Shown in pieces: positions 6,242 through 62,216 of a stretch of 64,000 nt of DNA. Source of the DNA: Candidatus Latescibacterota bacterium (GTDB lineage: Bacteria > Latescibacterota > UBA2968 > UBA8231); assembly GCA_965197905.1 (NCBI GenBank), contig CBDAOB010000005.1:588176-652175 (forward strand). Reading direction: 5' to 3'. The notes under the pieces are model-generated. The model saw only the letters and a program-made list of their open reading frames with translations, was not told the origin of the DNA and searched no databases. The position numbers and the translations under genes were made by a program. How positions within the stretch are numbered: the stretch's first letter is position 1; each line of letters begins with the position of its first letter.

Positions 6242-6270
6242 GCCCGAACAACCTGCTTCGAGCAGTTGTA

Positions 6271-6308
6271 GCAGAGGGGGAGCACCTGCTCCCCCTCTGC
6301 TTTTTTTG
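6271..6308 (+). terminator. Rho-independent terminator
   Basis: Perfect 14-bp stem 'GCAGAGGGGGAGCA'/'TGCTCCCCCTCTGC' with a 2-nt loop, followed by TTTTTTT, 30 nt after the stop at 6241. Confidence 0.7.
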
Positions 6309-6328
6309 TGCGCAACCCCCCCAATCTG

Positions 6329-8332
6329 ATGCAATCCGGTAGACCAGAACCCCCCTCGAGGACGGAGGGATCGGCAGCCACCGTCGACACAGCGGAAACC
6401 TCGCGGCCGAGCATCTCTCCGCGGGGTGTCCTCCTGGGAGCGATCACGGCCTCGGCGATGCTGTATTACGTGGTTGTGGTGGGGCAGGGGATCGGTGCCG
6501 GTCGCTACGTAAACTCCCAGTTCCCCATGACGGCGTTCATGCCGTTTGTGCTCTGGCTCTTCATCAACGTGCTGTTGAAACGGTTGTGGCCCTCCCAGGC
6601 GCTCAGTCGCGGGGAGCTGCTCACTATTCTGACCATGGTCTGGGTTGTGGGCATCATGCCCCAAAGGGGGTGGATGAGCTTCTGGACCGCCATCATGGCG
6701 GGTCCCACCATCCTGGCTACCAAAGAGAACCTTTGGGCAGAGATCTTCTTCGACTACCTGCCGTGGCACGTATTCGCTCCGACCAAAGGGCGCATCCTGG
6801 ATCCGTTTTTTTTCGGCTTGGAAGAGGGGATGCCGTTGCCATGGGACGGTTGGCTGGGGGTGCTGGGGCAGTGGCTTGGGGTCTGCATGGCGATGGTGAT
6901 TTTCGGTTACTGCCTGATGGTTCTTTTCCAGAAGCATTGGGAGGATGGGGAAAAGCTCACCTTCCCGCTAGCGCAGCTACCCTTGGACCTGACCCGAGGA
7001 TTCGACCGCCATCGAATTCCCGATCTCTTTCGCCTGAGGCTCTTCTGGCTCGGCTTTTTCGTGGTTTTTATCACCCTCGCCTACAACGTAGTCACCTACT
7101 TTGTTCCCGGGCTGCCGCCAGTGGAGATCTGGACCAAACGCGTTCCCATAGAGCTTTTAGAAGACTTTCCGTCCGTTACCATTCGCGTACTGCCGATCGT
7201 GCTGGCGGTAACCTATCTCTGCCCCGTGGACATTCTGGGCAGCCTGGTCTTGTTCCATCTCCTCTACTTGGTCAAAGAGGGGTTGATACGAAGGGCCGGC
7301 TTCTCGGTAGAGGGATTCTCCGGAGTCGGCGCCACCGGACAGATCGCCGAATACAAACAGATCATCTTCATGGAGAGTTATGGCGCCCTGATCTTCGTCG
7401 CCCTTTGGTCCATCTGGCTCGCCCGCGGCCACCTGCGCTGGGTCTGGCGGCTGGTCTGGTCGGCGGGGGTTGATCGTGGGGAAGTCGCGCGTTACCGACT
7501 GGCCGCAGGAGGACTGGCCGTCTCAGCGATCTATGTGATCGTCTGGGGCATGGGATTGGGCATGGGTTTGCCGTTAACTCTGCTGGCTTTCGTGGTAATG
7601 GTCCTGACCTATTTCGTAATCGTCAAGCTGATCGCCGCCACCGGGTTCTCCTACCTCCTTCCAAACGAGCCCCACGCCAAGGGGCAGTCTTTCATCGCCG
7701 AGCTCGTGGGTACCATTCATCTTTCGCCCCGGGAGGTGGTGGCGTACAAGGTGTTCGCCAGCCGCGCCTTCTTCGGCGACACCCGGATTCCCGCCTGGCC
7801 GGCGATCACCCACCACCTACGCAGTTTCTCACTCGAGCGTCAGCCAGGGTGGGTAACCGCCACCATTTTCGTCGCTTTCCCGGTCGGGTTTCTGGTGACC
7901 GCAACCTCTACCATCGAACTGAATTACCAGGAGGGCAGCTCCGCCGGCTTGTCGGGATTTCTATTCAACGATCTCGTCAACCTGATGAACAACCCTTCGG
8001 AGTCCACGGTGGGCAAGTGGCTCGTCTGGGGCACCGGATTCGTTGAGGCGGCCGGCATCGCCTATCTTCGGGGACGCTATCACTGGTTCCCACTTCACCC
8101 GATGGGGTTGGCTTTTCAAGCCACCACAGGGGTCTGGGTCTACTGGTTCAGCCTTTTCCTGGTTTGGACCGTGAAGCTGGTCCTGCTGCGATACGGGGGT
8201 GTTAGCGCCTTCCTCAAGGGAAAGCCATTCTTCTATGGCATGGCGGTCGGTTACGTGCTGGGTGTAACACTCTCTGGTATCGTGGATCTTTTTTGGTTTC
8301 CGGCGGGTGGTCACCGGATGCATGCATGGTAG
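6329..8332 (+). CDS. Large polytopic membrane protein, paralog 1 of a 4-member uncharacterised family (~650 aa, >=12 predicted TM helices)
   Basis: ATG at 6329; the ORF-track GTG at 6308 lies inside the terminator T-run. The protein is highly hydrophobic. It shares blocks with the other three copies: 'RGELLTI..MVWVVG', 'NLWAEIFFDYLPWH', 'EKLTFPLAQLPLDLT', 'YLCPVDILGS', 'WSIWLARGHLRWVW', 'VKLIAATG', 'FGDTRIPAWP', 'HWFPLHPMGLAFQ', 'LLRYGGV..KPFFYG'. Confidence 0.7.
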   Translation: MQSGRPEPPSRTEGSAATVDTAETSRPSISPRGVLLGAITASAMLYYVVVVGQGIGAGRYVNSQFPMTAFMPFVLWLFINVLLKRLWPSQALSRGELLTILTMVWVVGIMPQRGWMSFWTAIMAGPTILATKENLWAEIFFDYLPWHVFAPTKGRILDPFFFGLEEGMPLPWDGWLGVLGQWLGVCMAMVIFGYCLMVLFQKHWEDGEKLTFPLAQLPLDLTRGFDRHRIPDLFRLRLFWLGFFVVFITLAYNVVTYFVPGLPPVEIWTKRVPIELLEDFPSVTIRVLPIVLAVTYLCPVDILGSLVLFHLLYLVKEGLIRRAGFSVEGFSGVGATGQIAEYKQIIFMESYGALIFVALWSIWLARGHLRWVWRLVWSAGVDRGEVARYRLAAGGLAVSAIYVIVWGMGLGMGLPLTLLAFVVMVLTYFVIVKLIAATGFSYLLPNEPHAKGQSFIAELVGTIHLSPREVVAYKVFASRAFFGDTRIPAWPAITHHLRSFSLERQPGWVTATIFVAFPVGFLVTATSTIELNYQEGSSAGLSGFLFNDLVNLMNNPSESTVGKWLVWGTGFVEAAGIAYLRGRYHWFPLHPMGLAFQATTGVWVYWFSLFLVWTVKLVLLRYGGVSAFLKGKPFFYGMAVGYVLGVTLSGIVDLFWFPAGGHRMHAW

Positions 8333-8401
8333 AAGCGCCTCCTGCTCGAAGCTGTTGGCGGATTTCATTCCGCCGTAGATTCTGCCCGTGGCAGTAATAC
8401 C

Positions 8402-9832: not shown

Positions 9833-9839
9833 GAATTCC

Positions 9840-11507: not shown

Positions 11508-11512
11508 GAATT

Positions 11513-13969: not shown

Positions 13970-13988
13970 TTCGGCTAAAGGAGAGCGC

Positions 13989-15527
13989 ATGATTTCGCCG
14001 CTACGAAACATTTCACACCCTTTCAAACTGCCCTCTGACATTATCTACTTTCACGACTGGCGCTACGTGCACCACGGCAGTCACTCCACCGGCTGGAGGA
14101 ATAAGGAGGGGGAGTGGCTGCGTATCTGGTCGGCCGACCCGGTGCCCCCGCTGCGTCACGACCCCGGATACATGCCAATGGGTATTCGACTCCGTGCCAA
14201 ACCGGCGCAGAAAAGCGAGCCCTTCTATTTGCCCGCCGAGGACGAGGGTTTCATCTTCGCCGGCGTCATGATGCAGGACGAAGGGCGTTATCGCTGGTGG
14301 TACGAATCATTCCCGGCGGAGCATATCACCAGCGACAAATACGCCATGGGGGATAGCGATTACGTGCGCTACGGGGAATCCGACGACGGTTGGAGCTGGC
14401 GATTCCCGGAGCTGGGTCAGATCGAGCGAAAGGGCACCACAAACAACAACATCGTGTACGGTCCCCCGGTCATCGATCCCACCGGCTTGCACGGGCCCTG
14501 CATCTTCAAGGATCCCTCGGCGCCGCCGGAGGAGTGCTACAAGATGATCCACACCGGGCACCTGACGCCAGCGATGAAAGAGCGCTACCTGAAGGAGCGA
14601 CCGGACGAGGTGGGCGCCCTGAATACGGCGGAGCGTTGGGACGGCCTCTTTGGGGCAATCTCTCCCGACGGCATCAGCTGGACGCCGCTGCCCGAGCCGC
14701 TGGTGGCCCAGATCAGCGATACCCACAATGCCTGCGAGTACGATCCGGTGCTGGGGCAGTACGTGGCGTACGTCCGCAACCATTTCTTTGCCAGGCGCAC
14801 CATCGGCCGCAGCGCCAGTGACGATTTTCGTCGGCTGCCCCTGTCCGAGGATCTCTTCTGGCCGGGCACTGTCGAAGAGGCGTACGACCTGTGGTACACC
14901 GCCGCAAAGACCAAGATGCCCGGCACCACCGACTACCACATCATGTTTCCGCTGCGCTGGCGCCTCATCGACGACTCCTTCAGCTTCGTGCTGGCAGCCA
15001 GCCCGGACAACATCCTGTGGAGCTACGTCCCCGGGGGCGCGGTCTGCGAGCCAGGTGATTCCGGAGATTGGGTAGCCGGTGCGGTGGCTCCGGGCGTGGG
15101 TATGGTGGAGCTGCCGGACAACAAGATGGGGATCCCGATCGTCGGCTCTCCGGAACCGCACAAGCATTTGCGGCAGCCGCCCCACGGACATATGGCGTGG
15201 GCGATCTGGCCGAAAGGACGATTGGTGGCGCTGGAGGCACCGGTGGAAGGGAGTTTCCGAACCTTTCCTCTGGAGACCGAGAAACGAAACATCCACCTGA
15301 ATTTCAAGACACCCCCCGGGGGGTATGTTCAGGTTCAGGTTACCGATCGCCGCTACCAGCCGCTTCCCGGCCGCAGCTTCGAGGATTGCGACTGGTTGAT
15401 CGGCGATCAGATCGATCGGCAGGTGAGTTGGAACGGGGAGACCGACCTCGGACACGACGGAAGCGGCACTCTTTCCCTTGGATTTCGCATGCGCTGCGCC
15501 GAGCTATACAGTGTCGAGTTCAGATAG
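13989..15527 (+). CDS. Cytoplasmic BNR/Asp-box beta-propeller protein (glycoside-hydrolase-like), paralog of 54499..55965
   Basis: Start chosen at ATG 13989, preceded by SD 'AAAGGAGAG'; the ORF-track start 13830 overlaps the upstream gene. Asp-box-like 'ESDDGWSW' is followed by 'NNIVYGP', mirroring 'TSDDGEHWEQ...NNIAYDP' in the paralog. Confidence 0.5.
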   Translation: MISPLRNISHPFKLPSDIIYFHDWRYVHHGSHSTGWRNKEGEWLRIWSADPVPPLRHDPGYMPMGIRLRAKPAQKSEPFYLPAEDEGFIFAGVMMQDEGRYRWWYESFPAEHITSDKYAMGDSDYVRYGESDDGWSWRFPELGQIERKGTTNNNIVYGPPVIDPTGLHGPCIFKDPSAPPEECYKMIHTGHLTPAMKERYLKERPDEVGALNTAERWDGLFGAISPDGISWTPLPEPLVAQISDTHNACEYDPVLGQYVAYVRNHFFARRTIGRSASDDFRRLPLSEDLFWPGTVEEAYDLWYTAAKTKMPGTTDYHIMFPLRWRLIDDSFSFVLAASPDNILWSYVPGGAVCEPGDSGDWVAGAVAPGVGMVELPDNKMGIPIVGSPEPHKHLRQPPHGHMAWAIWPKGRLVALEAPVEGSFRTFPLETEKRNIHLNFKTPPGGYVQVQVTDRRYQPLPGRSFEDCDWLIGDQIDRQVSWNGETDLGHDGSGTLSLGFRMRCAELYSVEFR

Positions 15528-15550
15528 TCTGGGTTACTTGAAGCATTAGA

Positions 15551-16889
15551 ATGACTGTCGCCGGCGGACAGGCCATGGCCGGGTGGGCTGAAGCGGACAT
15601 AACGCCTCCTCTGGGATTTCCCATGGGTGGGCGTGGGCCCGTCTTCGACCCAGCCGAGCAGATCGCCGATCCGCTCCTGGCGCAAGTCACCATCCTGCAG
15701 GATCGACGGGGACGGCGCGTTATTCTGGTATCCCTCGACATCCTGGGATCGACCCCTTCCGTAGCAGATCCAATCCGCCATCAGCTGGCGGCAATTGCGG
15801 GCGCCACTCCCGAAGCGGTAGTCCTCAATTATTCCCATACCCACAGCAGCGGCATGGGCTTGCTGGAGATCTATCCGTACAGCGGTAAGAAACCGGCACA
15901 GATAGGGGATTACGAGACCCGGTTGTCGAAGACGCTCCTGCGCCTTGACGCACGATGCTTTGGACCGTCTCTCGCCAGTGCGTGCCTACTGGCGCAACGG
16001 AGAGAGCGATCTGGCCATCAATCGCCGGCGCAAGAACGAGAACGGCATCACCGAGCATCGACCGAACAAGGACGGGTACTACGATCCCAATCTCTGGGTG
16101 TTGGAACTGGAGGGGTCTGACGGCCGAGCGATTCTCTACAGCTACGCCTGCCACCCAGTGGTGCTGTACGGGGCAGAGTGGCAGACGATCTCGGCGGACT
16201 TCCCGGGCAGGACCCGCCTAACTCTCAGAGCGGCGTTTGGAGAGGCAACTCACGTGCAGTTCCTTCAGGGTCTGGCGGGAAGCGTGCGGCCGCGTATCCT
16301 CGCCGATCTCGCGAAAGAGGTGTTCGTACGCGGATCGCGGGAGACGCTCGAGCGCACCGGCGACCAGTTGGCCGATGATTTGATGGAAACTCTGCGAACT
16401 ACGGCCAACGAGATAGAGGTGGAACTGCATGCGGCGATGGGGTACGAGCCTGTCCGGCCGGGCCCACCGTTGGACCCGGACTCAGTGGAGGAGATGGGAG
16501 ACTCCTGGGGTGGAGCCGATGTCTACTGGCGAGAACGCCTGCAGAACGGGCCGCCCTGCGATCTGGTTCAGCCCTGGCCCGTCGGCCTGATTCAGCTGGA
16601 CCGGAAACACCTGATCGCCTATATGGCCAGCGAGGCTGTAGCCGAATGGCGTCCGCTGATCGAGGAGGTGCTTTCGGGGTACGAGCTGGCCTGTTGGGCT
16701 TACTGCCAGCACGACCACACCTACCTGCCGACGGACGAGCTGATTGCGGACGGCGGGTACGAGGTGGATCGGGCTCCGCTGTGCACCAACTTCTGGCCGC
16801 AGCCGCTGGCACTGGGAACGGACGACTTGATCAGGACCGAATTCGCCCGGTTGCGAGAGCGCGTTGAGCGGGAGCGAGCACGACCTTAG
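15551..16889 (+). CDS. Neutral/alkaline ceramidase-like hydrolase, interrupted by a frameshift near 15940-15960
   Basis: The N-terminal part (frame of 15551) has 'ADITPPLGFPMGG' and 'NYSHTHSSG', typical of the neutral ceramidase N-domain. The C-terminal part (frame of 15945) has 'AINRRRKNE...PNLWVLELEGSDGRAILYSYACHPVVL', also ceramidase-like. Together the two ORFs give the expected ~450 aa. Confidence 0.5.
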
Positions 16890-20779: not shown

Positions 20780-20961
20780 CGTGGCCAATTCTCCCATGGT
20801 CTCGAACGAACAGCGGGCTAATCTAGGCTTGTGAGCAAGGAGGGTCAACCAATGCTCTGCGCAGGCTGGCTCAAGATGTGATCGTGAGAGATGAAGCTGG
20901 AAAGGTTGTTGGGAAACGCCGGCTGAACAATATTAGTCCAACGCATTTCAGAGTGTGAAAG

Positions 20962-21924
20962 ATGACTTCCTTTAACGAATCCGCCAAAAAAACCAGGGCC
21001 TGGCTCGAGGCGAACTTCGACCCGGACGGTAGCTGCCGCATCAATCCCGAGGACGCCCGGTACTACATGAAAACCCCGTATATGATGACCATGGCGGGTA
21101 TGCGCGAGAGAGGAGCACGGGTCGCCCAACAGGTGATGACACGGTTCGTCGGAGATGTCGGCGACTTGGTCTCCTCGGCGCCCCTGGAAAATCGAATCTA
21201 CGCCATGGGCTGGCTCGTACTGGGTGCGGTGGTTGCTGAGCGCTTTGATCTGGCACATGTCCTGGCTGATCGGCTCGAGCATTATCAGGACCGCCAAAGC
21301 GGGGGAATCGTGCTGCAGGATGAGGATGCGGGTGAGGAGGTGGCGGAGGTCTGTTTCTCAGGGGGCGCCGGCATGGCGCTTGCGGCCGCGGGGCGCCTCG
21401 AAGCAGCGCGAAGGATGGCCAACACCTTCGAAGCGCTTATCGTCGTGCAAGGCGCGGCGGGTTGCTTTTACAACCGCTTCCGGCGGGACGGATCTGTGGT
21501 GTTGCGAAAAGCGGGGGGCGAGTGGGAGAAGGCGTATGATTTACAGCAGGACGAACAGCGTCCCGCCAATTTTGCCACGGTGATCAACACATTGGTGTGG
21601 ACAGCGCGAGCTCTGCGCGAGGAAGGTTATTTGCGAGCAGCTCGGAAATATGTTGATCTGGTATATCGGCACCGGCGGAATCCGGCACAGTTTGGGCGCG
21701 CCACCAAGTTCGGCTGGTCCATCTTGAATCTATATGCGGAGACCGGCGACACCGATCTGCTGGAGCGCGCCCGTGAGCTGGGGGAAGTATTGGTGGCAAA
21801 ACAGAGCCACGACGGGCTCTGGAACCCCCAGCCGGGAAACGTGGAGGACGCTCCCGCCTGGGCGCGACTGTCCTATTCCTCTGACTGTGCCATGACCATC
21901 TTTGCCCTAGCGAACCTAAGCTAA
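20962..21924 (+). CDS. Hypothetical protein (alpha/alpha-toroid-like, unknown function)
   Basis: 320-aa ORF with no internal stops and typical high-GC codon usage; I recognise no diagnostic motif. Confidence 0.45.
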   Translation: MTSFNESAKKTRAWLEANFDPDGSCRINPEDARYYMKTPYMMTMAGMRERGARVAQQVMTRFVGDVGDLVSSAPLENRIYAMGWLVLGAVVAERFDLAHVLADRLEHYQDRQSGGIVLQDEDAGEEVAEVCFSGGAGMALAAAGRLEAARRMANTFEALIVVQGAAGCFYNRFRRDGSVVLRKAGGEWEKAYDLQQDEQRPANFATVINTLVWTARALREEGYLRAARKYVDLVYRHRRNPAQFGRATKFGWSILNLYAETGDTDLLERARELGEVLVAKQSHDGLWNPQPGNVEDAPAWARLSYSSDCAMTIFALANLS

Positions 21925-21945
21925 TAGCCAACAGAAAGGGTTGAA

Positions 21946-22704
21946 ATGACCGAAGATATGGACCCCAGGCGCCATCTGGAACTGGAAGGTACCGTAAATA
22001 CGAGGGATGTGGGTGGGTACGAAACTCGCGATGGCCGGCATACCAAATGGGGTGTCCTTCTGCGCTCCGATTCGCTGCACGAACTGTCGCCGGCCTCCAA
22101 GCAAGTGCTGGTGGATTTCGGATTGAAATCGGTGTTGGACCTCAGGAAGAGTGCCGAGATGCAGAAAACGCGGAACGTGTTCTTCGGCTCTGACACGGTC
22201 GATTACTATCACCAGAACATGGTAGGCGACACTCTCATGCGGGAACGGGAGCATATCCCAGAGGAGCTGGATTACGTCGAGCATATGCGGTGGTCCTACT
22301 CGGTGGTGCTCGATCGCCGCAGATCCCACATACAGGATACCCTCTCACTGTTGGCGCGTCCGGGGACATTGCCCGCACTGGTTCACTGTGCCGGTGGCAC
22401 CGAACGCACCGGTCTGATCGTCGGGCTGGTTCTGGGCATCGTAGGAGTTCCCGAAGAGACCATCACGGAGGATTTCGCGCTGACCGCACGATTCACCTAT
22501 GCCAACTACCTGGAGAAACATCCCGAGCTATCGGCCGACAGCTACACGCTGGAAGATCATCAAGCGAAAATATGCCGGCCCGACACCATGCTGGCCGTGC
22601 TCAGGACGCTGGAAGAGCGTTATTGCAGCGTTGTCGGGTTTGCCCGCCATATCGGTGTGAGCGAAGAGGAGATGGAGGCCCTGCGGGACGCTCTCCTGGA
22701 GTAG
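21946..22704 (+). CDS. Protein-tyrosine phosphatase family (PF13350-like)
   Basis: 'LVHCAGGTERTG' matches the CX5R P-loop (HCxxGxxRTG) of tyrosine/dual-specificity phosphatases. Confidence 0.7.
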   Translation: MTEDMDPRRHLELEGTVNTRDVGGYETRDGRHTKWGVLLRSDSLHELSPASKQVLVDFGLKSVLDLRKSAEMQKTRNVFFGSDTVDYYHQNMVGDTLMREREHIPEELDYVEHMRWSYSVVLDRRRSHIQDTLSLLARPGTLPALVHCAGGTERTGLIVGLVLGIVGVPEETITEDFALTARFTYANYLEKHPELSADSYTLEDHQAKICRPDTMLAVLRTLEERYCSVVGFARHIGVSEEEMEALRDALLE

Positions 22705-22798
22705 TGCCTCGCTAACGCAATAACATCACGCGCATTGTCGCCCCGCACCAGGTCGCGGAGAAGCAGAGTTCGCTGAACCTTCCTCGACTACGGTCCCC

Positions 22799-24967
22799 TT
22801 GCCCATTCACTCTGAAGACCTTGGTTTTGCACCTCCTCACCGGCCCACAAAGGTGTTCGGACTGCATGGATATCTTTCCCATGCCAGCGTGTCACGGGGA
22901 CATCAGCTGGAGATACATGCGAGCAACGATGGCCCACTACACCTTCAGCTGCTCCGACTTGGGGTCGGCAAGGTGAACCGGCAGGCCGACGCGATTTCAT
23001 CGACGGTCCCCATATCCGACCTGGGTCGCGTCGACTGCGACGAGCGGCCTGTTCATTGCGGAAGTTATGTCCATGTAGCCGACGTGTCCGTTCCTACTGT
23101 GTTCGGGTTGGAGGTCTGGTTTCGACAGCTGGCTCACCGGGGATGTGCGGGGCTCATCTCCCACGATCGTTTTGCGTTGTCGCTCGGTGCGGAAGGCAGG
23201 CTCGAATTTCGCCTCGGTGAAGCGGCCATCAGGGCGCCGGATGCCCCCTCCTTGAAGATCTGGCATCACGCCTGGACCCAATGCAACGCAGACAAGATCG
23301 AATTATTTCTGGATGGCGACCTCGTGGGCAGTGCGAGCATCCAGAGTGGATCAGAGGGAGCCGGCGGCAGGGAGGGGACGCTCCGCATGGGTGCCTTGCT
23401 CAACGACAACAACGAGGCAGATCATCTGCTCACCGGTGATCTCTGTGCGCCAGCAGTCTACGACCGGGTGTTCAGTGCAGAGGAAATACGGCATCGCTTT
23501 CGCACCAAAGAGCTGGAGCCCGCTTCCGGTTGCATCGGCCACTGGAAGTTCGATGGCCTGCACGGTCCGCCGTTCCGCGATACCTCTGGCTCGGGGCGGC
23601 ACGGCCAAGGTGTCAACTATCCGCTGCGCATGATACCGGGGCCAGGACTGCAAGAGGAACAACCCTGGGCGGAGTTCGATCCGACATCCGACCCGAACCA
23701 TGGCCACGCCGTGCGCCTGATGGCGGATCAGCTGGTGGACTGCCGCTGGCCCCAGGTCCTGACCTGGACGGTTCCGGACGATCTGCCTCAAGGCCAGTAT
23801 GCCATGCGGCTTGAGAATGAAGGCGGAGACTCGAGAGACCTCCCGTTCATCGTGAGGGCAGCGAAACCTGCTGCCACGCTTATGGTTCTGTCGACGACGG
23901 GCACGCGTGTGGCCTACAACTACATGCCGTTTGGTGATCCGGAATTGGACTACGGCGCATATCTGAATCATCCCAGCTATCCGATCCTTGGGCATCTGCT
24001 CGGTCAACGGCGACCCGCTCGGGGCGACCCCTATTTCTACCAGGTGGTCAATTTCGAGCTTCCCTTGTGCGCCTGGTTGGATCAGCATCGTATACCGTAC
24101 GACCTGTATAGCGAGTGGGACCTGGAGTCGGATCCATCGCTGTTGGTTCATTATGCTGCGGTGGCGTGGGCGGGTCACTGTGAGTACTGGACGGCCACAC
24201 GGTATGAGGGGTTGTGTCGCTTTCGCGATCGGGGCGGTCACATCTTGTCGCTCTCTGGAAATACCTGCTTCTGGCGGGTCAGTATCGATCTCGAGAACGA
24301 GGTCATGGAGGTCCGCAAGCACGGTGCCGAGCAGGCCCGAGATAGCTGCATAACCGTAGATGCCATGGTAGACAACTCCCATTGGCACCAGATGGATCAC
24401 CAGCCGGGCACCCTGATGCAGGCATCGGGTTGGCCCCAGTACCGGTTGGGCCTGGGCATGACCAATGGTTGGTCAGTTCCCTGTCGCATCGACGGCGATA
24501 GCGCCGGCTACGAGGTGCTGGAGCCGGAGCACCCCTTGTTTCGCGATCCCCACGAGGTGTCGGTCGAGACTCCGTTTGCCCCCGGCGGCGCCGGTTACGA
24601 GACCGATGTCAGCTACCGGTCAATGGTAGACCGATTCGGCGAGGCTCAGAACCCGGTCCGATCGCCCCGACCGTCGCGGTCTGATGCGAGCACGGAGGGC
24701 GCAGCGAAAAACAGCGGCGCCGTACTCGCGCGGGCGCGCCTCCAGGACGCTCTTGTCCTGGACCTCGACATGAACAGCACCATCGGCGAGCTGTGGTCCG
24801 AGATGCAATTCGGAGAATCGGAAACTGGAGGCATCACTTTCGCCGCCGGCAGCTGCATGGCGGCGCTGGTCCTTCTGGAGGATCGGAACTTCTCCAATTT
24901 CATGCTCAATGTTCTGCATCGAATGGGCTTGAACGAAAGTCGCACGAGCGGAGCTGCCGCAAGTTGA
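22799..24967 (+). CDS. Large LamG-like / N,N-dimethylformamidase-beta-subunit-like (DUF6605-like) protein
   Basis: 722 aa. The N-terminal half has a concanavalin/LamG-like pattern. The central region ('LMVLSTTGTRVAYNYMPFGDPELDYGAYLNHP...YDLYSEWDLE...AWAGHCEYWTATRYEGL...GGHILSLSGNTCFWRVSI') resembles the DMFase large-subunit family. The stop lies 2 nt before the start of membrane paralog 2. Confidence 0.45.
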   Translation: MPIHSEDLGFAPPHRPTKVFGLHGYLSHASVSRGHQLEIHASNDGPLHLQLLRLGVGKVNRQADAISSTVPISDLGRVDCDERPVHCGSYVHVADVSVPTVFGLEVWFRQLAHRGCAGLISHDRFALSLGAEGRLEFRLGEAAIRAPDAPSLKIWHHAWTQCNADKIELFLDGDLVGSASIQSGSEGAGGREGTLRMGALLNDNNEADHLLTGDLCAPAVYDRVFSAEEIRHRFRTKELEPASGCIGHWKFDGLHGPPFRDTSGSGRHGQGVNYPLRMIPGPGLQEEQPWAEFDPTSDPNHGHAVRLMADQLVDCRWPQVLTWTVPDDLPQGQYAMRLENEGGDSRDLPFIVRAAKPAATLMVLSTTGTRVAYNYMPFGDPELDYGAYLNHPSYPILGHLLGQRRPARGDPYFYQVVNFELPLCAWLDQHRIPYDLYSEWDLESDPSLLVHYAAVAWAGHCEYWTATRYEGLCRFRDRGGHILSLSGNTCFWRVSIDLENEVMEVRKHGAEQARDSCITVDAMVDNSHWHQMDHQPGTLMQASGWPQYRLGLGMTNGWSVPCRIDGDSAGYEVLEPEHPLFRDPHEVSVETPFAPGGAGYETDVSYRSMVDRFGEAQNPVRSPRPSRSDASTEGAAKNSGAVLARARLQDALVLDLDMNSTIGELWSEMQFGESETGGITFAAGSCMAALVLLEDRNFSNFMLNVLHRMGLNESRTSGAAAS

Positions 24968-24969
24968 GC

Positions 24970-26916
24970 ATGGACCCACACAAGTCGGCAGTGCAGCCCC
25001 GGATTACCCTGAGGGCGCTCCTTCTTGGAGCCCTCACCATAGGTCTCACGTTCTATTACGCTATCACGGAAGTACAGGGGCAGGGGGTCGGCGGTTTCGT
25101 GCTGTCGCAGATGCCGATTCTCGTGCTCGTGCCTTTCTTCACCTGGCTGTTCCTGAACGTGGCCCTCAAATGGCTGTGGCCTGCCATAGCTCTCAGAAGA
25201 GATGAGCTGCTGACGATCTTCTGCATGCTTTGGGTGGTCGGCACCGTCCCCCACATAGGATGGAGTGGCTATTGGGTGATCGTGCTAGCGATTCCCACCT
25301 ATTTTGCTTCCGCGGAGAATCAGTGGGCCGAGGTGTTCTTTGACCTGATGCCGTGGCACCTTTTTCCGGAGTCCTCGGCGAGAGTCATAGACGGGGTCTG
25401 GCAGGGGCTGCCACAAGGGGCGGAGATTCCGTGGGAGGGGTGGTTGGGGCCGATTGCGCAGTGGCTCGGGGTCTCTATGGGGCTGGTGGTGTTCGGGTTT
25501 TGTCTCGTTGCCGTCTTCCAGCGTCAGTGGGAGGCAAGAGAGAAACTCACCTTTCCTCTGGCGCAGCTGCCGCTAGATCTCACCGCCGGATTCGATTCCA
25601 GCCGTCGACTACCCGACATCTTTCGATCGAGGTTATTCTGGATCGGTTTTTTTCTGGTTTTCGGCGTCGTGGTGTACAACGTCGCTACCTATTTCTCTCC
25701 TGGAATAAGACCTATGGGGATCTACTGGGAGATGTACGAAATCGAGTTCCCAGAGCCGTATCCCTCCATCCGCGTGCGTATCATGCCTCTGATCATGGCG
25801 GTGACCTATCTCTGTCCGTTGGATATCCTCGGCAGCATGGTGCTCTTTCACCTCCTGGCCAAGGGCAAGATGGGTGTCATAGACCGGCTAGGCTTGAGTT
25901 TTGGAGAAGAGGGCCGAACCCTGACATCCAATACGGTGCTGCACCTGGAGAGTTATGGGGCCATGATCTTTATCGGCTTGTGGTCCGTCTGGCTGGCCCG
26001 TGGCCACTTGCGCCGCGTTTGGCAACAGGTGCGTCTGGGCTCCGGCGATCGGGCCGATGTGCGCCTCTACCGCCTCGCCGTTGGCGGATTGCTGCTGTCA
26101 GCCCTCTACGTGGTGAGCTGGCTGATAATGTTGGGCATGAGTCCACAGCTGGCGGTATTGGTTTTCCTGGTTACGGTTTTGACCTATCTGGTCATCGTCA
26201 AGCTGATCGCCGCCACCGGGTGCGCTTACCTGCTCACCGATTGGGGGCATGTGAAGGCAGAGTCGTTTGTGCACCATCTGCTGGGTACCGAGCGCCTGTC
26301 GCCACAGGACATCGTCGGTTTCGGGATTTATACGAGCCGCAGTTTTTTTGGTAATCTGCGCATACCGGCGTGGCCATCCCTGCCCCACGTGTTGCGAATA
26401 TTTCCGCTGCGAGATCAGCCAGGTTGGGTTACAGCGCTCATTTTCTTGGCTTTTCCAGTCGGTTTTCTGACAGCGGTGGGGGCTACCCTCGAGATGGGGT
26501 ATGTCAGGGGCGGGCTGGTGTCCAGCGCCGGCGGCGCCATCGGCGAATACGACCAGATTGCCCGCTTGATTCAAAACCCGACCGCAACCGATCCGGACCG
26601 TTGGGGCGTTTTTTCGTTTGGTCTGCTCGAAGCGGCCTGTCTGGCGTTTCTCCGCGGACATTTCCACTGGTTCCCGCTGCATCCGGTTGGCGTCGCGTTC
26701 CAGAACACGATCGTTTCCTCCCGCTACTGGTTCTCGCTCTTCCTGGTCTGGCTGGTAAAGCTGATGCTGCTGCGCTACGGCGGAGTCCGCGCCTACCTCA
26801 CCGCCAAACCGTTTTTCTACGGTCTCGGAGTGGGGTATGTTTCCGGCGTCATCCTTTCGGTCACCGTGGATCTGATCTGGTTCCCCGGCGGCGGTCATCT
26901 CATCCACAACTGGTAA
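24970..26916 (+). CDS. Large polytopic membrane protein, paralog 2 of the uncharacterised 4-member family
   Basis: Start at ATG 24970 ('MDPHKSAVQPRITLRALLLGALTIG...'). It shares all conserved blocks with 6329..8332, 27083..29020 and 29026..30972: 'ELLTIFCMLWVVG', 'NQWAEVFFDLMPWH', 'EKLTFPLAQLPLDLTAG', 'YLCPLDILGS', 'LESYGA', 'WSVWLARGHLRRVW', 'VKLIAATG', 'FGNLRIPAWP', 'HWFPLHPVGVAFQ', 'LLRYGGVRAY..KPFFYGLGVGYV'. Confidence 0.75.
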   Translation: MDPHKSAVQPRITLRALLLGALTIGLTFYYAITEVQGQGVGGFVLSQMPILVLVPFFTWLFLNVALKWLWPAIALRRDELLTIFCMLWVVGTVPHIGWSGYWVIVLAIPTYFASAENQWAEVFFDLMPWHLFPESSARVIDGVWQGLPQGAEIPWEGWLGPIAQWLGVSMGLVVFGFCLVAVFQRQWEAREKLTFPLAQLPLDLTAGFDSSRRLPDIFRSRLFWIGFFLVFGVVVYNVATYFSPGIRPMGIYWEMYEIEFPEPYPSIRVRIMPLIMAVTYLCPLDILGSMVLFHLLAKGKMGVIDRLGLSFGEEGRTLTSNTVLHLESYGAMIFIGLWSVWLARGHLRRVWQQVRLGSGDRADVRLYRLAVGGLLLSALYVVSWLIMLGMSPQLAVLVFLVTVLTYLVIVKLIAATGCAYLLTDWGHVKAESFVHHLLGTERLSPQDIVGFGIYTSRSFFGNLRIPAWPSLPHVLRIFPLRDQPGWVTALIFLAFPVGFLTAVGATLEMGYVRGGLVSSAGGAIGEYDQIARLIQNPTATDPDRWGVFSFGLLEAACLAFLRGHFHWFPLHPVGVAFQNTIVSSRYWFSLFLVWLVKLMLLRYGGVRAYLTAKPFFYGLGVGYVSGVILSVTVDLIWFPGGGHLIHNW

Positions 26917-27082
26917 GGGCGATCCGGTCGCCTTCACAGACCCGATTTTTTAGATTAACACAGGCTGCTGAGTACCCTGCCCGCGGCCTCATATCCGACC
27001 GCCCATACCGGAGGCTTCACGTTCTGCAGCGATAGGGGCCGCGATTACTTCCGTTCCGCCAAGTTCCCATCCCAATCTCAAG

Positions 27083-29020
27083 TTGGAGACCGACGACACG
27101 CCAGCGATTACCGCCCGAGCGATAATTCTCGGAGCACTAACAGTTGCTGTCGCCCTCTATTATCTGATTACCGAAATCGCCGGACGGGGCATGGGTGGGT
27201 TCGTCGCTTCGCAGTTGCCTATGGTTGCGTGGGTGCCGTTCGTGCTCTGGCTCTTCGCCAACCTCGTGCTGCACCGCATGTGGCCCAGGATTGCGCTTCG
27301 CCGCGGCGAACTGCTCACCATCTTCGCCATGCTCTGGGTTGTGGGCGCGATCCCGCAATGGGGCTGGGTGAGCTACTGGGTCATGTGGCTGGCCGTGCCG
27401 CCCTACTTCGCCTCTCCGGAGAATCAATGGGCAGAGACCTTCTTCGATTACCTCCCCTGGCACGCCTTTCCGGATACCTCCCCGCGGGTGCTGCACGGTC
27501 TCTGGCAGGGGTTGCAGGAGGGGGCGCCGATCCCGTGGGAGGCGTGGATCGGCCACACAGCCAACTGGCTCGGGGTCTCCCTGGCGATGGTGGTCTTCGG
27601 CTTCTGCATGGTCTTGCTGCTGCAGCGCCAATGGGAGGTACACGAGAAGCTCACCTTTCCCCTGGCGCAGCTGCCTCTGGACCTGACCGCCGGATTCGAC
27701 GATAGCGTGGGCGTTCCTCTGATTTTTAGGAAACCGCTGTTCTGGGTCGGCTTCTTCGTCGTGTTCGCTCCCGGTCTCTACAACATCATTACCTATTTTA
27801 CTCCAGGCCTGCCCACGATTGAGCTATATTGGAAGTGGTACACCGCCGAACTGCCCCCAGGTTATCCCGAGCTCTACTTTCGTGTCATGCCGCTGGTCAT
27901 TGCCGTGACCTATCTCTGTCCGCTGGATATTCTCGGAAGCATGGTGGCATTCGCGGCGCTCGCTTTTCTCAAGGGTTCGCTGATGGGCCGGTTCGGCTTC
28001 TCTCTCGGATCCGAGGGGCAGCCGTTGGAGTGGGGCAGAATTCTACATCTGGAAAGCTATGGCGCCATGCTTTTCCTGGGGCTATGGTCGATCTGGCTTG
28101 CCCGTGGTCATCTGCGTCGCGTCTGGAGGCAGGTGCGACACGGTGTGGGAGACCGGGGAGAGGTGGCCCGCTATCGCTGGGCTTACCTCGGCCTGGTGCT
28201 CTCCAGCATCTACGTGATCACCTGGGCCGTGGGTCTGGGCGTCAGCCTGCCGCTGGCGATATGCGTGTTTGTGGTGATGTTTCTCACCTATCTGGTTCTC
28301 ATCAAGCTGATCGCCGCCACCGGCTGCGCCTACCTGCTAACCGACTGGAGCCACATGAAGGCGGAAACCTTCGTACAGGAGCTGATCGGCAACGCCAACC
28401 TGTCGCCGCAGAACTACGTCGCCTTCAAGGTGTTCGTCGGCCGCGCCTTCTTCGGCAATCTGCGCATTCCGACATTGCCGGCCCTGCCCCACGTCTTCCG
28501 CATTTTCTCGTTGAATCGGCAGCCAGGGTGGGTAACAACCCTCGTTTTTGTCGCCTTCCCGCTGGGGTTCGTGGTGTCGGTCATAGCAACCTTGGAGCTG
28601 GGTTACACCCGGGGAGAGCTGATCTTCGAATCAAGGGGGGTCATCGGCAACGTCAACTACATCTTCGTCTATCTCGACAATCCGACCGAGCTGGATCTGC
28701 ACCGCTGGGCAGTCTGGTTCCTCGGGTTCTTCGAGGCCGCGGCGCTCGCATTTCTGCGCTCGAGGTACTATTGGTTTCCGTTGCACCCGGTCGGCCTGGC
28801 GTTTCAATGGACGATTGTCGCCATCGTCTACTGGAGCACGTTGATGCTCGTCTGGCTGGCCAAGCTAGTCATCCTTCGTTTCGGCGGCGTGCGCGCCTAC
28901 CTCGCTGGCAAGCCGTTCTTCTACGGGCTGGGAATCGGCTACGTGGTTACGGTCATTGTCTCGGTGACCGTGGACCTGATCTGGTTTCCCGTCGCCGGTC
29001 ACAGGATACACGGCTGGTAA
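27083..29020 (+). CDS. Large polytopic membrane protein, paralog 3
   Basis: 645 aa, 'METDDTPAITARAIILGALTV...'. It has the same motif set. It is separated from paralog 2 by 166 nt and from paralog 4 by 5 nt. Confidence 0.75.
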   Translation: METDDTPAITARAIILGALTVAVALYYLITEIAGRGMGGFVASQLPMVAWVPFVLWLFANLVLHRMWPRIALRRGELLTIFAMLWVVGAIPQWGWVSYWVMWLAVPPYFASPENQWAETFFDYLPWHAFPDTSPRVLHGLWQGLQEGAPIPWEAWIGHTANWLGVSLAMVVFGFCMVLLLQRQWEVHEKLTFPLAQLPLDLTAGFDDSVGVPLIFRKPLFWVGFFVVFAPGLYNIITYFTPGLPTIELYWKWYTAELPPGYPELYFRVMPLVIAVTYLCPLDILGSMVAFAALAFLKGSLMGRFGFSLGSEGQPLEWGRILHLESYGAMLFLGLWSIWLARGHLRRVWRQVRHGVGDRGEVARYRWAYLGLVLSSIYVITWAVGLGVSLPLAICVFVVMFLTYLVLIKLIAATGCAYLLTDWSHMKAETFVQELIGNANLSPQNYVAFKVFVGRAFFGNLRIPTLPALPHVFRIFSLNRQPGWVTTLVFVAFPLGFVVSVIATLELGYTRGELIFESRGVIGNVNYIFVYLDNPTELDLHRWAVWFLGFFEAAALAFLRSRYYWFPLHPVGLAFQWTIVAIVYWSTLMLVWLAKLVILRFGGVRAYLAGKPFFYGLGIGYVVTVIVSVTVDLIWFPVAGHRIHGW

Positions 29021-29025
29021 CGCGG

Positions 29026-30972
29026 ATGGATCACTCATCCTCACGATCTGTCGAATCCTCCGCCGAATCAGGCAAAGTCGATCGCCACATCACCGCTCGC
29101 GCGATTGCCATCGGGGGAATTACGATCGCGGCGATTTTCTACGGAATCGACATAGCGGTCAAATCCCAGCTTCCTCTCATCGTTATCGGCGCCTTCATGA
29201 TGTGGCTGTTCGTCAACATACTTCTGAAGAAGCTGCTGCCGTTTCTTGCTCTCAGTCGCAGTGAGCTGCTGACCATCTTCGGAATGCTGTGGGTCGCGGG
29301 TACTATTTCGGGCAGTGGGTGGATGAGTTATTGGGCACTCATCATGGCGACCCCGGCGTATTACGACTCCGAGGAGAATCAGTGGTCGGACACGATCTTC
29401 GATTTCATGCCCTGGCATGTCTTTCCGGAGACCGATGCACGGGTCATCGACGCATTTTGGCTGGGGTTACCGGAAGGCGCCCCTATACCCTGGGACGGTT
29501 GGTTAGGTGCAGCCAGTCAGTGGTTCACGATATCCGTGGCGTTAGTCGTTTTCGGTTTCTGCATAATTCTCCTTTTCCAGCGGCAATGGGAAGAGAAGGA
29601 GCGCCTGGCGTTCCCCATCGCACAGGTCCCGGTCGAGTTGACCGCCGGTGTCGACGGTCCGCGGGCGGTGCCCGAGATGCTGCGCTCCCGTCTCTTCTGG
29701 TGCGGCTTTCTCCTGATCTTTGTTCCAATCCTCTATAGCGTCGCCACCTACTTCATCGCCGGGCTGCCCGCCCTAGAATTCTACTGGATCGCCTACGATC
29801 TGAAGATTGGTGGCTCTGTTCCCGATCTCTGGGTGCGCATCCTGCCGATGCTGATGATCATGCTCTACCTGTGTCCCCTGGATATTCTCGGGAGTTTCAT
29901 CCTGTTCTATTTCATCGCGGTCGCGAAAGGCACGGCGATGCAGCGGATCGGATTCTCGGTCGGTTCGGAGGGTCATGTGCTGGGTTGGGAGAAGATCCTG
30001 CAGATGGAAGCCTACGGCGCCCAGATCTTCGTCGCGTTGTGGTCCATATGGCTTGCACGCCGTCACCTGCGACGCATCTGGGAGCAGGCGCGAAGTGGGG
30101 AAGGTGACCCGAGTGATGTGGTGCGCTACCGGATCGCCTTCTTGGGATTGGTGCTTTCGGCCATCTATATCATCGCCTGGCAGGTGAGCATAGGAATGAA
30201 CCTGGTTCTTTCCGTCGGCATGTTCTTGTTGACAACGCTCATCTACTTCCTCATAGCCAAACTGGTTGCCGCCACCGGATTCAGCTATCTGCTGCCGCAC
30301 TGGGATCACATGAAGGGAAAGTCGTTCATCCTAGATCTAGTGGGCACAAACCACATTTCCTCACAGAGCCTGGTAGCGTTCAGCGTGGTCACCAGTCACG
30401 CCTATTTTGGCAACTTTCGCGTCTCGGCATGGCCGGCCATCCCCCATATCCTCAAAATGTTTCCGGTGCGTCGGCAACTGGGCAAGGTCGCGGCGATGGT
30501 GGCGGTGGCTTTCGCCGTTGGATTTGTGTCAGCCTGCGTTTCAGCGTTGAGCACCGGTTACGAAGGCGGCATGTTTCGCAGCGTCGGCGCCGGCGTCAGT
30601 TCTTTCGACTACACCGTGGACCTAATTCTGAATCCCCGGCTTCCCGACTTCGGCCGCTGGGGGGTCTGGTTGTTTGGGTTCTTCGAGGGGATGCTCTTGG
30701 CCATCTTGCGCGCTCGCGTCCACTGGTTCCCGCTGCACCCGATCGGCTTGGCTTTTCAGTACACGCCGTCGCCACATCGCTACTGGGCGACGTTGTTGAT
30801 CGTCTGGTGGGTAAAGTTCGCGTTGCTGCGTTATGGAGGGCCACGGGCGTATGAAACCGGGAAGCGATTCTTCTACGGTCTTGCGGTGGGTTACGTCATG
30901 GGAGCGTTGCTGTCCGACGGCGTGGACTACATCTGGTTTCCCCTCGATCCGCATATCGTCCACACCTGGTAG
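29026..30972 (+). CDS. Large polytopic membrane protein, paralog 4
   Basis: Start at ATG 29026 ('MDHSSSRSVESSAESGKVDRHITARAIAIGGITI...'). The 1047-aa ORF-track entry 27829..30972 is a read-through of an out-of-frame stretch overlapping paralog 3. It has the same motif set ('SELLTIFGMLWVAG', 'NQWSDTIFDFMPWH', 'ERLAFPIAQVPVELTAG', 'YLCPLDILGS', 'WSIWLARRHLRRIW', 'AKLVAATG', 'HWFPLHPIGLAFQ'). Confidence 0.75.
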   Translation: MDHSSSRSVESSAESGKVDRHITARAIAIGGITIAAIFYGIDIAVKSQLPLIVIGAFMMWLFVNILLKKLLPFLALSRSELLTIFGMLWVAGTISGSGWMSYWALIMATPAYYDSEENQWSDTIFDFMPWHVFPETDARVIDAFWLGLPEGAPIPWDGWLGAASQWFTISVALVVFGFCIILLFQRQWEEKERLAFPIAQVPVELTAGVDGPRAVPEMLRSRLFWCGFLLIFVPILYSVATYFIAGLPALEFYWIAYDLKIGGSVPDLWVRILPMLMIMLYLCPLDILGSFILFYFIAVAKGTAMQRIGFSVGSEGHVLGWEKILQMEAYGAQIFVALWSIWLARRHLRRIWEQARSGEGDPSDVVRYRIAFLGLVLSAIYIIAWQVSIGMNLVLSVGMFLLTTLIYFLIAKLVAATGFSYLLPHWDHMKGKSFILDLVGTNHISSQSLVAFSVVTSHAYFGNFRVSAWPAIPHILKMFPVRRQLGKVAAMVAVAFAVGFVSACVSALSTGYEGGMFRSVGAGVSSFDYTVDLILNPRLPDFGRWGVWLFGFFEGMLLAILRARVHWFPLHPIGLAFQYTPSPHRYWATLLIVWWVKFALLRYGGPRAYETGKRFFYGLAVGYVMGALLSDGVDYIWFPLDPHIVHTW

Positions 30973-31001
30973 CCCAGGCGCCACGTCGCGTCACCGGCTG
31001 T

Positions 31002-31760
31002 TCAACGCCCTAAGATGCGGGCAACCTCCTCGACGATACGCGATTCGAGCCCGGTGGATTTGTTGACGAATCCTTCCACGTCCGATTTCAGAAAGGCTAC
31101 GGTGTTCTGGTCGATATCCTCGGATAGTACGACGATCGGAATCGTTACGTTCATGTTTCTTCGAAGTTTGCGGATGGCGCCATGGCCGCCGGCGTCCGGG
31201 GTGGCGATATCTATCAGGATGAGATCGAAAGGTCGCGTAGACAGCAGCTGTACGGCGTGATCGAACGAGGGGGAAAGAATGACGCGATGCCGCTGTCCGA
31301 GCGCTTTTACGACCTCGGTCCTGGACCCCACCGACGAATCGATGAGCAGGATGGCGGCGCGGCCTTTGAATTCGATGTCAGCGGAACCGCGAGGACGTTC
31401 AAGCGCTTTCTCAAGCGCACCAGCCAGCTTCTCCTCGCTAAACGGCTTGACCACGTATCCGGCAGGATTCGTAGCGCGGGCGCGTTGAATGGTCTGCGGA
31501 TCGGTGTTTGCGGTGACATAGATTACTGGGGTTCCCATTCGCTCGCCAATGACCTGTGCCGCCATGACGCCATCCTTTTCGCCCTCAAGGCGAATGTCCA
31601 TGAGGACTACATCCGGCTTGAGCTGCGCGGCCTTGGACACGACAGCGGTTCCGGATGAAACAACTTCAGCGACCTTATACCCCAACTTTTTTACAATATC
31701 GGCCAGATGGGTGGCAACGATCGCCTCGTCTTCGGCAATGAGAACCGTACTATCCGACAT
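31002..31760 (-). CDS. Response regulator with two tandem receiver (REC) domains and no output domain
   Basis: REC1 has 'VLIAEDE...VVLMDIRLEG...PVIYVTAN...GYVVKPF'. REC2 has 'ILLIDSS...DLILIDIATPDAGG...IPIVVLSE' but only one acidic residue in the first acidic pocket, so it is possibly a pseudo-receiver. Confidence 0.75.
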   Translation of the reverse strand: MSDSTVLIAEDEAIVATHLADIVKKLGYKVAEVVSSGTAVVSKAAQLKPDVVLMDIRLEGEKDGVMAAQVIGERMGTPVIYVTANTDPQTIQRARATNPAGYVVKPFSEEKLAGALEKALERPRGSADIEFKGRAAILLIDSSVGSRTEVVKALGQRHRVILSPSFDHAVQLLSTRPFDLILIDIATPDAGGHGAIRKLRRNMNVTIPIVVLSEDIDQNTVAFLKSDVEGFVNKSTGLESRIVEEVARILGR

Positions 31761-32050
31761 CTAAAATCGTCCCGTTGTCTGAGTCCTTAAACCGATCAGT
31801 AGTAGCCCTAGGGTGTTATATAACAATATCGGCAGCTCTCGCCAGAAGGAACGTGACCTATCTTACACATGGAACCGGTAAAACAGATACACGCGATGCA
31901 AAACGGTTAACGAATTGAGAAAGTATTTTTTATTCACGCCCAGAGGTCGCTGCGATCTGCATAGCAGCCGAACGTATCGAGATGATGATGGTGATTGGCC
32001 GCGCGTGGGAGGTTGCTAGGTGTCGCGATGGGAGTCTAGCGTGGGAAAGT

Positions 32051-32663: not shown

Positions 32664-33023
32664 ATGAAACATTACGGATTGACCCTTTGTCTGCAGGATG
32701 ATGCGGAGGTCATAGAGCGCTACAAAGAATACCATAGGAATCCATGGCCAGGACCGCTGCAAGGTTTGCGAGACGTGGGCATCGTGGACATGCAGATCTT
32801 TCTTCTAGGCACCCGCATGTTCATGTATATGACGACTATCGATGAATTCGAACCCGATGTAGATTTTCCGAAGTACATCGAAGCGAATCCAAAGGCGAAG
32901 GAATGGGACGACCTCATGCGCACCTTTCAAGTCAAGGTGGCCGAAGCAAAAGAAGAGGAGTGGTGGGCGATGATGGAGCACGTGTTTGACCTGGGAAGAC
33001 ATTTGCCTGCAGAAGAGGATTAA
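32664..33023 (+). CDS. rhaM: L-rhamnose mutarotase-like protein
   Basis: 119 aa. 'MKHYGLTLCLQDDAEVIERYKEYHRNPWPGPLQGLRDVGIVDMQIFL' fits the RhaM fold family (M-[IK]-[RK]-x-[AG]-x-x-[ML]-x-[LV]...Y...H...WP). Confidence 0.65.
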   Translation: MKHYGLTLCLQDDAEVIERYKEYHRNPWPGPLQGLRDVGIVDMQIFLLGTRMFMYMTTIDEFEPDVDFPKYIEANPKAKEWDDLMRTFQVKVAEAKEEEWWAMMEHVFDLGRHLPAEED

Positions 33024-54452: not shown

Positions 54453-54498
54453 CGAACCCTCAAACGACGCTGGCGCGCAGGCGGCGGGAAAAGAACAG

Positions 54499-55965: not shown

Positions 55966-56032
55966 GGTGCTTCCTCCTGAGGTGAGTGCGTAATTCGAGA
56001 GGTCGGTAGCCGGTTTTGGGACATCTACTCCC

Positions 56033-62162: not shown

Positions 62163-62216
62163 TTCATCAACTCCTTCTGCTATTTCGCTCGTGATGCGAA
62201 AACACAACGAGACACA

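Follow-up and report, generated by a model that had tools for sequence, protein, structure and literature searches.

What role does a gene of the N,N-dimethylformamidase (DMFase) family play immediately upstream of a row of genes for multi-pass membrane proteins? The question is raised by a 64,000-nucleotide stretch of DNA from a Candidatus Latescibacterota bacterium (assembly GCA_965197905.1, contig CBDAOB010000005.1, positions 588,176 to 652,175), hereafter called the window, in which a 722-residue enzyme is encoded directly ahead of three paralogous proteins carrying the domains DUF6785 and DUF6784. The reading that we favor, with a probability of about 0.55, is that the gene encodes an iron amidase of the cytoplasm that is expressed together with importers, as part of a Latescibacterota catabolic cluster in which a compound would be imported and then de-acylated. 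The features on which the argument turns are as follows.

22799..24967, + strand: gene of the DMFase large subunit/N-acyl-beta-Phe acylase family (722 residues; TTG start, TGA stop at 24965-24967)
23063..23488, + strand: Laminin_G_3 (pentraxin-fold) region, residues 89-230, equivalent to DMFase domain II according to Pfam, Foldseek and the published DMFase domains
23720..24631, + strand: DMFA2_C (PF20254) catalytic domain, residues 308-611, according to Pfam
24964..24972, + strand: gene junction TTGAGCATG, with stop TGA at 24965-67 and a downstream start at TTG 24964 (4-nt overlap) or ATG 24970 (2-nt gap)
24970..26916, + strand: DUF6785+DUF6784 membrane protein (Pfam), tandem copy 1, predicted oligopeptide transporter (OPT)/Yellow-Stripe-like fold
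27083..29020, + strand: DUF6785+DUF6784 membrane protein (Pfam), tandem copy 2, about 61% identical to copy 1
29026..30972, + strand: DUF6785+DUF6784 membrane protein (Pfam), tandem copy 3, 51% identical to copy 1 and starting 5 nt past the copy 2 stop

Judged from its sequence, the open reading frame (ORF) 22799..24967 is a real gene, far beyond chance. Many metagenomes and genomes contain homologs of the 722-residue protein, with identities of 39-84% and expectation values (E) reaching 0. The motifs AYNYMPFGD, AWAGHCEYWTATRYEGL and GNTCFWRV, which the initial annotation had quoted, all lie within the translation. The public call of the identical protein (P0001) has 704 residues and starts at GTG 22853. 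TTG 22799 appears the likelier start, because all homologs carry a conserved N-terminal motif (consensus DDxxFLPPHExTxVPGFHAY) that lies upstream of GTG 22853 in the window, and because a homolog of 79% identity (P0002) has a Met aligned to TTG 22799; the public record is probably 18 residues short. The close enzyme clade is small: a search of 1.84 billion representatives gave about five 50%-identity clusters with scores above 600 bits. Family counts from this representative library are inflated by giant multi-LamG proteins and were used only for the size of the close clade.

The enzyme matched two Pfam-A families above their curated cut-offs, in agreement with the earlier domain calls: DMFA2_C (PF20254; residues 308-611, E 2.2e-41, 143 bits against a cut-off of 27) and Laminin_G_3 (PF13385; residues 89-230, E 4.5e-8, 33.8 bits against 27.6). 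NCBIfam contained no match for the enzyme or for the membrane proteins. Only two solved relatives were detected by sequence, namely an N-acetyl-(R)-beta-phenylalanine acylase (8huy, E 2e-18) and the Paracoccus DMFase large subunit (6lvb, E 9e-16). A profile of 25 clade members aligned to 6lvb with E 5e-36, starting at DMFase residue 8 and ending near the C-terminus. An AlphaFold2 model of the 704-residue version had a mean predicted local distance difference test score (pLDDT) of 79.5 and a predicted template modeling score (pTM) of 0.78. A Foldseek search of the Protein Data Bank (PDB) with this model gave template modeling scores (TM) of 0.62-0.69 to 6lvb, 6lvd and 8huy over about 810 columns and no other full-length match; pentraxin and LamG domains came next and matched the N-terminal part of the enzyme only.

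The Paracoccus DMFase large subunit consists of an immunoglobulin (Ig)-like domain I, a domain II with a pentraxin fold (residues 74-337) and an alpha/beta/alpha catalytic domain III (PMC7686228). The model indicates that the window enzyme shares this three-domain architecture (Ig-like, pentraxin/LamG, alpha/beta/alpha). Given the alignment from DMFase residue 8, the order of the Foldseek matches and the published domains, the LamG match is the ordinary DMFase domain II. Both PF13385 and PF20254 are present in 52 of the 56 homologs listed. What had been described as a LamG module combined with a DMFase-like domain is thus the standard architecture of the family, and we rejected the idea of an added lectin module, the region being the integral pentraxin-fold domain II.

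Of the two characterized relatives, DmfA2 of Paracoccus sp. DMF (6LVB/6LVC; PMC7686228) resembles the window enzyme in its three domains and in having counterparts of five active-site residues, at about 18-19% identity in the structural alignment. The acylase (8HUY/8I59/8I5A) is the best single-sequence match in the PDB and has the same full-length fold (TM 0.63-0.66, about 21-22% identity); within the aligned stretches the two proteins agree at the Tyr, His and Glu positions.

The active-site residues of DMFase were mapped onto the window enzyme via HMMER alignments and a 55-sequence MAFFT alignment, using the numbering of the 722-residue protein. The codons for the predicted active site lie in the following stretch.

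23915..24262, + strand: stretch with the predicted active-site codons, from the HMMER and MAFFT alignments to DMFase
23915-17, + strand: Y373, equivalent to DMFase Y399
23960-62, + strand: Y388, equivalent to DMFase Y440
24176-78, + strand: H460, equivalent to DMFase H519
24182-84, + strand: E462, equivalent to DMFase E521
24260-62, + strand: N488, equivalent to DMFase N547

In DMFase the Fe3+ ion is held by Y399, Y440 and E521; the mutants Y440A, E521A and H519A show no activity, and the active site contains a buried water held by N547 (PMC7686228). All five counterparts (Y373, Y388, H460, E462 and N488) were invariant in 55/55 homologs in the MAFFT alignment. In its aligned stretches, the acylase 8huy likewise has the two Tyr, the His and the Glu. 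Four of the predicted site residues lie in or beside the motifs that had been singled out earlier (AY373NYMPFGD, GH460CE462YW and GN488TCFWRV), and Y388 lies 8 residues past AYNYMPFGD, in DYGAYLNH. The enzyme therefore carries every position of a predicted 2-Tyr-1-carboxylate metal site together with the essential His and the Asn, and the alignments place it as a new, uncharacterized member of the known DMFase/acylase family in which the catalytic machinery is intact. The amidase-like role suggested in the initial annotation fits these invariant residues.

The sequence at the junction of the enzyme gene and the first DUF6785 gene is TTGAGCATGG. Its reading bore out the earlier description of a stop 2 nt before the next ATG; the public gene call places the start of the downstream gene at the in-frame TTG 24964. 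The same junction is kept in two related loci, L002 and L008, whose enzymes are 79% and 82% identical to that of the window. A scan of positions 20800-31900 found no terminator-like site between the two genes. The scan gave 16 terminator-like matches in all against a shuffle mean of 10.1 +/- 3.0, about two standard deviations above it, and all 16 were inside ORFs. A sigma-70 promoter scan detected nothing meaningful in the intergenic regions, although the sigma-70 model may not apply to this phylum, and Rfam detected no RNA family in the window. Because the stop/start junction is tight and conserved in close relatives, it is very likely that the enzyme gene is co-transcribed with the first DUF6785 gene, as the initial annotation had proposed, and the two are probably also translationally coupled. 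In the favored reading, the shared transcript extends over all three diverged DUF6785 paralogs. Two genes upstream of the enzyme gene keep their synteny in L001, L002, L003 and L145.

20962-21924, + strand: gene for a 320-residue protein without a Pfam family
21946-22704, + strand: Y_phosphatase3 gene (Pfam)

The three tandem DUF6785 copies are 51-62% identical to one another in pairwise comparison. The same triplet is found in L002 and L008, so the triplication predates these genomes. An AlphaFold2 model of copy 1 was confident (pLDDT 88.3, pTM 0.90), and Foldseek against the PDB matched it to 7wst (E 9e-9) and 7wsr (E 3e-8) with TM 0.55-0.60 over about 690 columns. These are structures of barley Yellow Stripe 1 (YS1), the sole clear structural relative of the model; the next match had E > 0.1. 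YS1, a member of the OPT family, couples import to protons and works by an elevator-type mechanism (PMC9691689). The predicted fold of the DUF6785 protein aligned with YS1 (7WST; PMC9691689) over nearly the whole protein (TM 0.57/0.60), and both are multi-pass, helix-rich proteins of similar length (about 650 residues against the 601-residue chain of 7WST). They differ in that identity is 12-13% and that the DUF6785/DUF6784 proteins form separate Pfam DUF families. On the strength of the model, DUF6785/DUF6784 proteins are probable OPT-fold secondary transporters. A literature search for DUF6785, DUF6784, PF20581, PF20580, PF20254 and DUF6605 found no function. The public call of tandem copy 2 has 609 residues, with a start about 108 nt past TTG 27083; the 645-residue version looks right, because an N-terminal 'ITARA..LGALT' segment that is aligned in all paralogs lies upstream of the 609-residue start. 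The window contains one more paralog.

6308..8332, + strand: fourth DUF6785+DUF6784 paralog (Pfam), unlinked to a DMFase-like gene

The N-terminus of the enzyme is hydrophilic (MPIHSEDLGFAPPHRPTKVFGLHGY...), with a maximum 19-residue Kyte-Doolittle mean of 1.45. No signal peptide, hydrophobic segment or membrane segment was found in the enzyme, and the N-termini of 25 clade members were likewise without one. We infer from this that the enzyme is cytoplasmic and not an extracellular binding partner. Exported and fused forms do exist in the wider family. The distant member P0029 carries a Tat signal (PF10518), which is not shared by the clade of the window enzyme, and the distant members P0047-P0050 and P0053 include a 1065-1157-residue group with PF26607, most of which also have PF03984.

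The arrangement around the enzyme gene was compared across related loci, listed here by identity to the window enzyme protein.

L001, 100%: three DUF6785 genes immediately behind the enzyme gene, as in the window
L145, 84%: upstream genes as in the window; enzyme of 615 residues, then an integrase and an insertion sequence (IS) transposase, no transporters
L008, 82%: Candidatus Latescibacterota chromosome, the closest genome; arrangement as in the window
L002 and L003, 79%: arrangement as in the window
L148, 58%: DUF6785 ORF 35 nt downstream of the enzyme gene, missed by the public gene call
L064, 56%: enzyme, GntR/periplasmic-binding-type regulator, DUF6785, PhyH and further genes, on the same strand throughout
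L146 and L147, 52%: GFO_IDH_MocA, enzyme, PhyH (4-nt overlap), rhaM
L065 and L149, 50-51%: GH106 rhamnosidase, aldolase II, KARI-like, GFO_IDH_MocA, enzyme, rhaM
46-47% clade: enzyme, Amidohydro_2, aminotransferase

Four members of the 46-47% clade (L004, L010, L017 and L018) also have a single DUF6785 gene on the opposite strand, about 8 kb upstream. By a rough base rate, about 4-5 DUF6785 paralogs occur on single multi-megabase contigs among the matches listed, or about 1-3 per Mb, from which about 0.03-0.07 would be expected per 22-kb stretch (a rough estimate). Set against this low base rate, the recurrence in several arrangements makes the linkage look more than random, yet it is optional.

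In L008 the enzyme gene is split into overlapping frames (9878-11497 and 11350-12111) and the third DUF6785 copy is also split; the split enzyme gene is either an assembly frameshift or a pseudogene. In L145 (8001-12614) the enzyme gene is truncated, and a phage-type integrase and an rve-family IS transposase stand in place of the transporter triplet, as if a mobile element had been inserted or the region rearranged. In L148 (2908-4198) the DUF6785 homolog (hidden Markov model E 5e-45) is divided between two frames, probably through a frameshift or assembly error, and the public call is an opposite-strand 297-residue ORF.

The wider neighborhood points to catabolism. The genes surrounding the window cluster encode GFO_IDH_MocA, 2-hydroxyacid dehydrogenase, Amidohydro_2, RhaM, UxuA-like, PhyH and aminotransferase proteins, and one of them is a recurrent neighbor of the enzyme clade.

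32664..33023, + strand: rhaM (L-rhamnose mutarotase family)

The rhaM gene is also found near the enzyme gene in L002, L065 (10721-11152) and L146 (6016-6348), in differing arrangements and once alongside genes for a GH106 rhamnosidase and a class II aldolase, which hints that the enzyme clade is tied to the catabolism of rhamnose-like deoxy-sugars. With rhaM, GFO_IDH_MocA, Amidohydro_2, PhyH and aminotransferase genes as neighbors and, in one locus each, GH106 and class II aldolase genes, the setting suggests sugar or deoxy-sugar and organic-acid catabolism. It differs from that of DMFase, which is one of methylamine/C1 metabolism, whereas the window enzyme is found with sugar and organic-acid catabolism and transporters.

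These observations, which establish homology, fold, conserved catalytic residues, the gene junction and how the linkage is distributed, suggest the following scheme, in which iron dependence, amidase activity, the direction of transport and a shared substrate are inferred. The predicted OPT-fold DUF6785/DUF6784 transporters would import a small amide-containing compound. In the cytoplasm, the enzyme would cleave the N-formyl or N-acyl amide bond of this small natural compound at a mononuclear iron center held by Y373, Y388 and E462 and helped by H460 and N488. The de-acylated product would then pass to the sugar and organic-acid catabolic enzymes encoded around the cluster. Dimethylformamide (DMF) is man-made, and the window enzyme is unlikely to act on it. 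Because the neighbors suggest sugar or deoxy-sugar catabolism, a reasonable guess at the substrate is an N-acylated amino sugar or deoxy-sugar derivative; an N-acyl amino acid or peptide, also a guess, would be just as compatible with the acylase precedent and with the OPT fold.

A number of findings weigh against this reading, and they bear in turn on the linkage, on the active site and on the transporter assignment. No DUF6785 linkage was found in other members of the 46-47% clade (L005, L006, L009, L011 and L012), in L146 or at the P0010 locus, and no DUF6785 gene is within reach of the enzyme gene in L007 and L013-L016 (39-44%); the same holds for L019-L063 (23-31%). Conversely, a DMFase-like gene was present in 0/79 DUF6785 loci from metagenomes (820 kb). 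Large unannotated ORFs beside other DUF6785 genes were considered as remote DMFase relatives and rejected, with hhalign probabilities below 1%. Clustering of the neighboring ORFs of the 79 loci gave no cluster in more than 8 loci, and most representatives had no Pfam family; a tandem DUF6785 pair is present in about four or five of the 79.

Such a distribution would be expected if the enzyme and DUF6785 genes were merely packed into one operon in this Latescibacterota group and their products acted on different substrates. The DUF6785 neighbors, among which no family is dominant, are in keeping with this, as are the orthologs of 39-52% identity that are joined to other genes: to PhyH with a 4-nt overlap in L146, to GFO_IDH_MocA in L065 and L149, and to Amidohydro_2 and aminotransferase in L004 and L006. 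Nevertheless, DUF6785 recurs within 10 kb in several arrangements at identities of 46-82%, set against the base rate given above, and we regard mere lineage-specific packing as a serious but rather doubtful explanation. The linkage to the membrane family recurs in relatives but is not obligate, being absent from many orthologs and from 79/79 independently sampled DUF6785 loci. The locus looks more like an enzyme-plus-transporter catabolic cluster than a dedicated two-component machine.

At the active site, the model has pLDDT < 50 over residues 354-391 (704-residue numbering), the stretch with both Tyr ligands, and the inter-tyrosine loop in the clade of the window enzyme is about 20-25 residues shorter than in other clades. 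Moreover, DMFase is an alpha2beta2 protein whose small subunit is required, the large subunit alone being inactive (PMC7686228). Unlike DMFase, the window enzyme has no small-subunit gene adjoining its own, although a homology search with the small-subunit sequence was not made. Its upstream neighbor is the Y_phosphatase3 gene, separated from it by a 94-nt spacer without an ORF, and no conserved small ORF was seen beside the enzyme gene in relatives. The PDB entries of the acylase (8huy and others) list one protein only as molecule, so a large subunit can apparently work on its own.

The shortened loop could also mean that the DMFase fold has been kept for something other than amide hydrolysis, either another metal-dependent chemistry or a non-catalytic role. 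Only two family members have been characterized, and the catalytic core resembles ThuA-like and glutamine-amidotransferase-type folds, whose functions are diverse. Both characterized members hydrolyze amides, however, and the five residues for the metal site and catalysis are invariant in all 55 homologs, four of them also in 8huy, which makes loss or replacement of the amidase activity improbable.

As for the transporters, Pfam OPT (PF03169) was unmatched at E up to 10 in 41 DUF6785 members, and a PDB sequence search with the DUF6785 family profile gave no match at E up to 10. It might be argued from the lack of a sequence-level OPT match, of a PDB sequence match and of a function in the literature that DUF6785/DUF6784 proteins are exporters or membrane-embedded enzymes and that the cluster is not a unit of uptake and catabolism. 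We give this little credence: the single clear structural relative of a confident model is a proton-coupled importer, paralogy within genomes is strong, as is common for nutrient transporters, and a GntR/periplasmic-binding-type regulator lies beside one DUF6785 copy in L064.

Finally, the model in the initial annotation, a soluble LamG-type carbohydrate- or ligand-binding protein acting outside the cytoplasm as a physical partner of the membrane proteins, could draw on the Laminin_G_3 match and on the Tat signal of the distant homolog P0029 but is very improbable in view of the enzyme and the 25 clade members lacking a signal peptide or hydrophobic N-terminus, of a LamG region that is integral to the DMFase fold and so was rejected as the marker of an exported lectin, and of a linkage that is not obligate.

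Among the DMFase-type 2-Tyr-1-carboxylate iron amidases, only two members in the PDB are characterized, with the man-made solvent DMF and N-acetyl-beta-phenylalanine as substrates; the full catalytic set and the defined catabolic contexts of the proteins described here make them concrete candidates in a search for natural substrates. Likewise, the fold link between DUF6785/DUF6784 and OPT/Yellow Stripe proteins offers the first testable function for a large uncharacterized family that is abundant in uncultured phyla. Both points are advances at the level of annotation; they change no concept and reveal no new kind of system. More speculatively, and with the odds against it, DUF6785/DUF6784 might be an unrecognized, highly paralogous bacterial branch of the OPT/Yellow-Stripe fold and the linked DMFase-like clade might represent natural, pre-industrial 2-Tyr-1-carboxylate iron amidases. 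In Latescibacterota and related uncultured phyla the two would then jointly take up and de-acylate an N-formyl or N-acyl compound of natural origin, such as a glycan-derived N-acylated deoxy-amino sugar, and this would provide a physiological role for an enzyme family known so far mainly through an enzyme that degrades a solvent.

Several other genes in the window were noted. On the + strand, like the unlinked DUF6785 copy at 6308-8332 itself, a gene for a 631-residue protein with FlgD-Ig and type IX secretion sorting domains comes before that copy, and a TPR gene and two FG-GAP/ASPIC-UnbV genes come after it (region 4346-13969). ORFs of 565 and 314 residues (13830-16889) and the 320-residue ORF at 20962-21924 matched no Pfam or NCBIfam family; all close relatives keep the last immediately ahead of the Y_phosphatase3 and enzyme genes. 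On the - strand, a gene for a multihaem cytochrome c with an MtrC/MtrF-like domain (50863-52854) adjoins a gamma-glutamyltranspeptidase gene (52815-54755), and the same region (50863-57295) also encodes a 568-residue protein without a family and a pyridoxal phosphate-dependent enzyme. Positions 60381-63338 encode an oligopeptide ABC transporter (SBP_bac_5 and ABC_tran with oligo_HPY).

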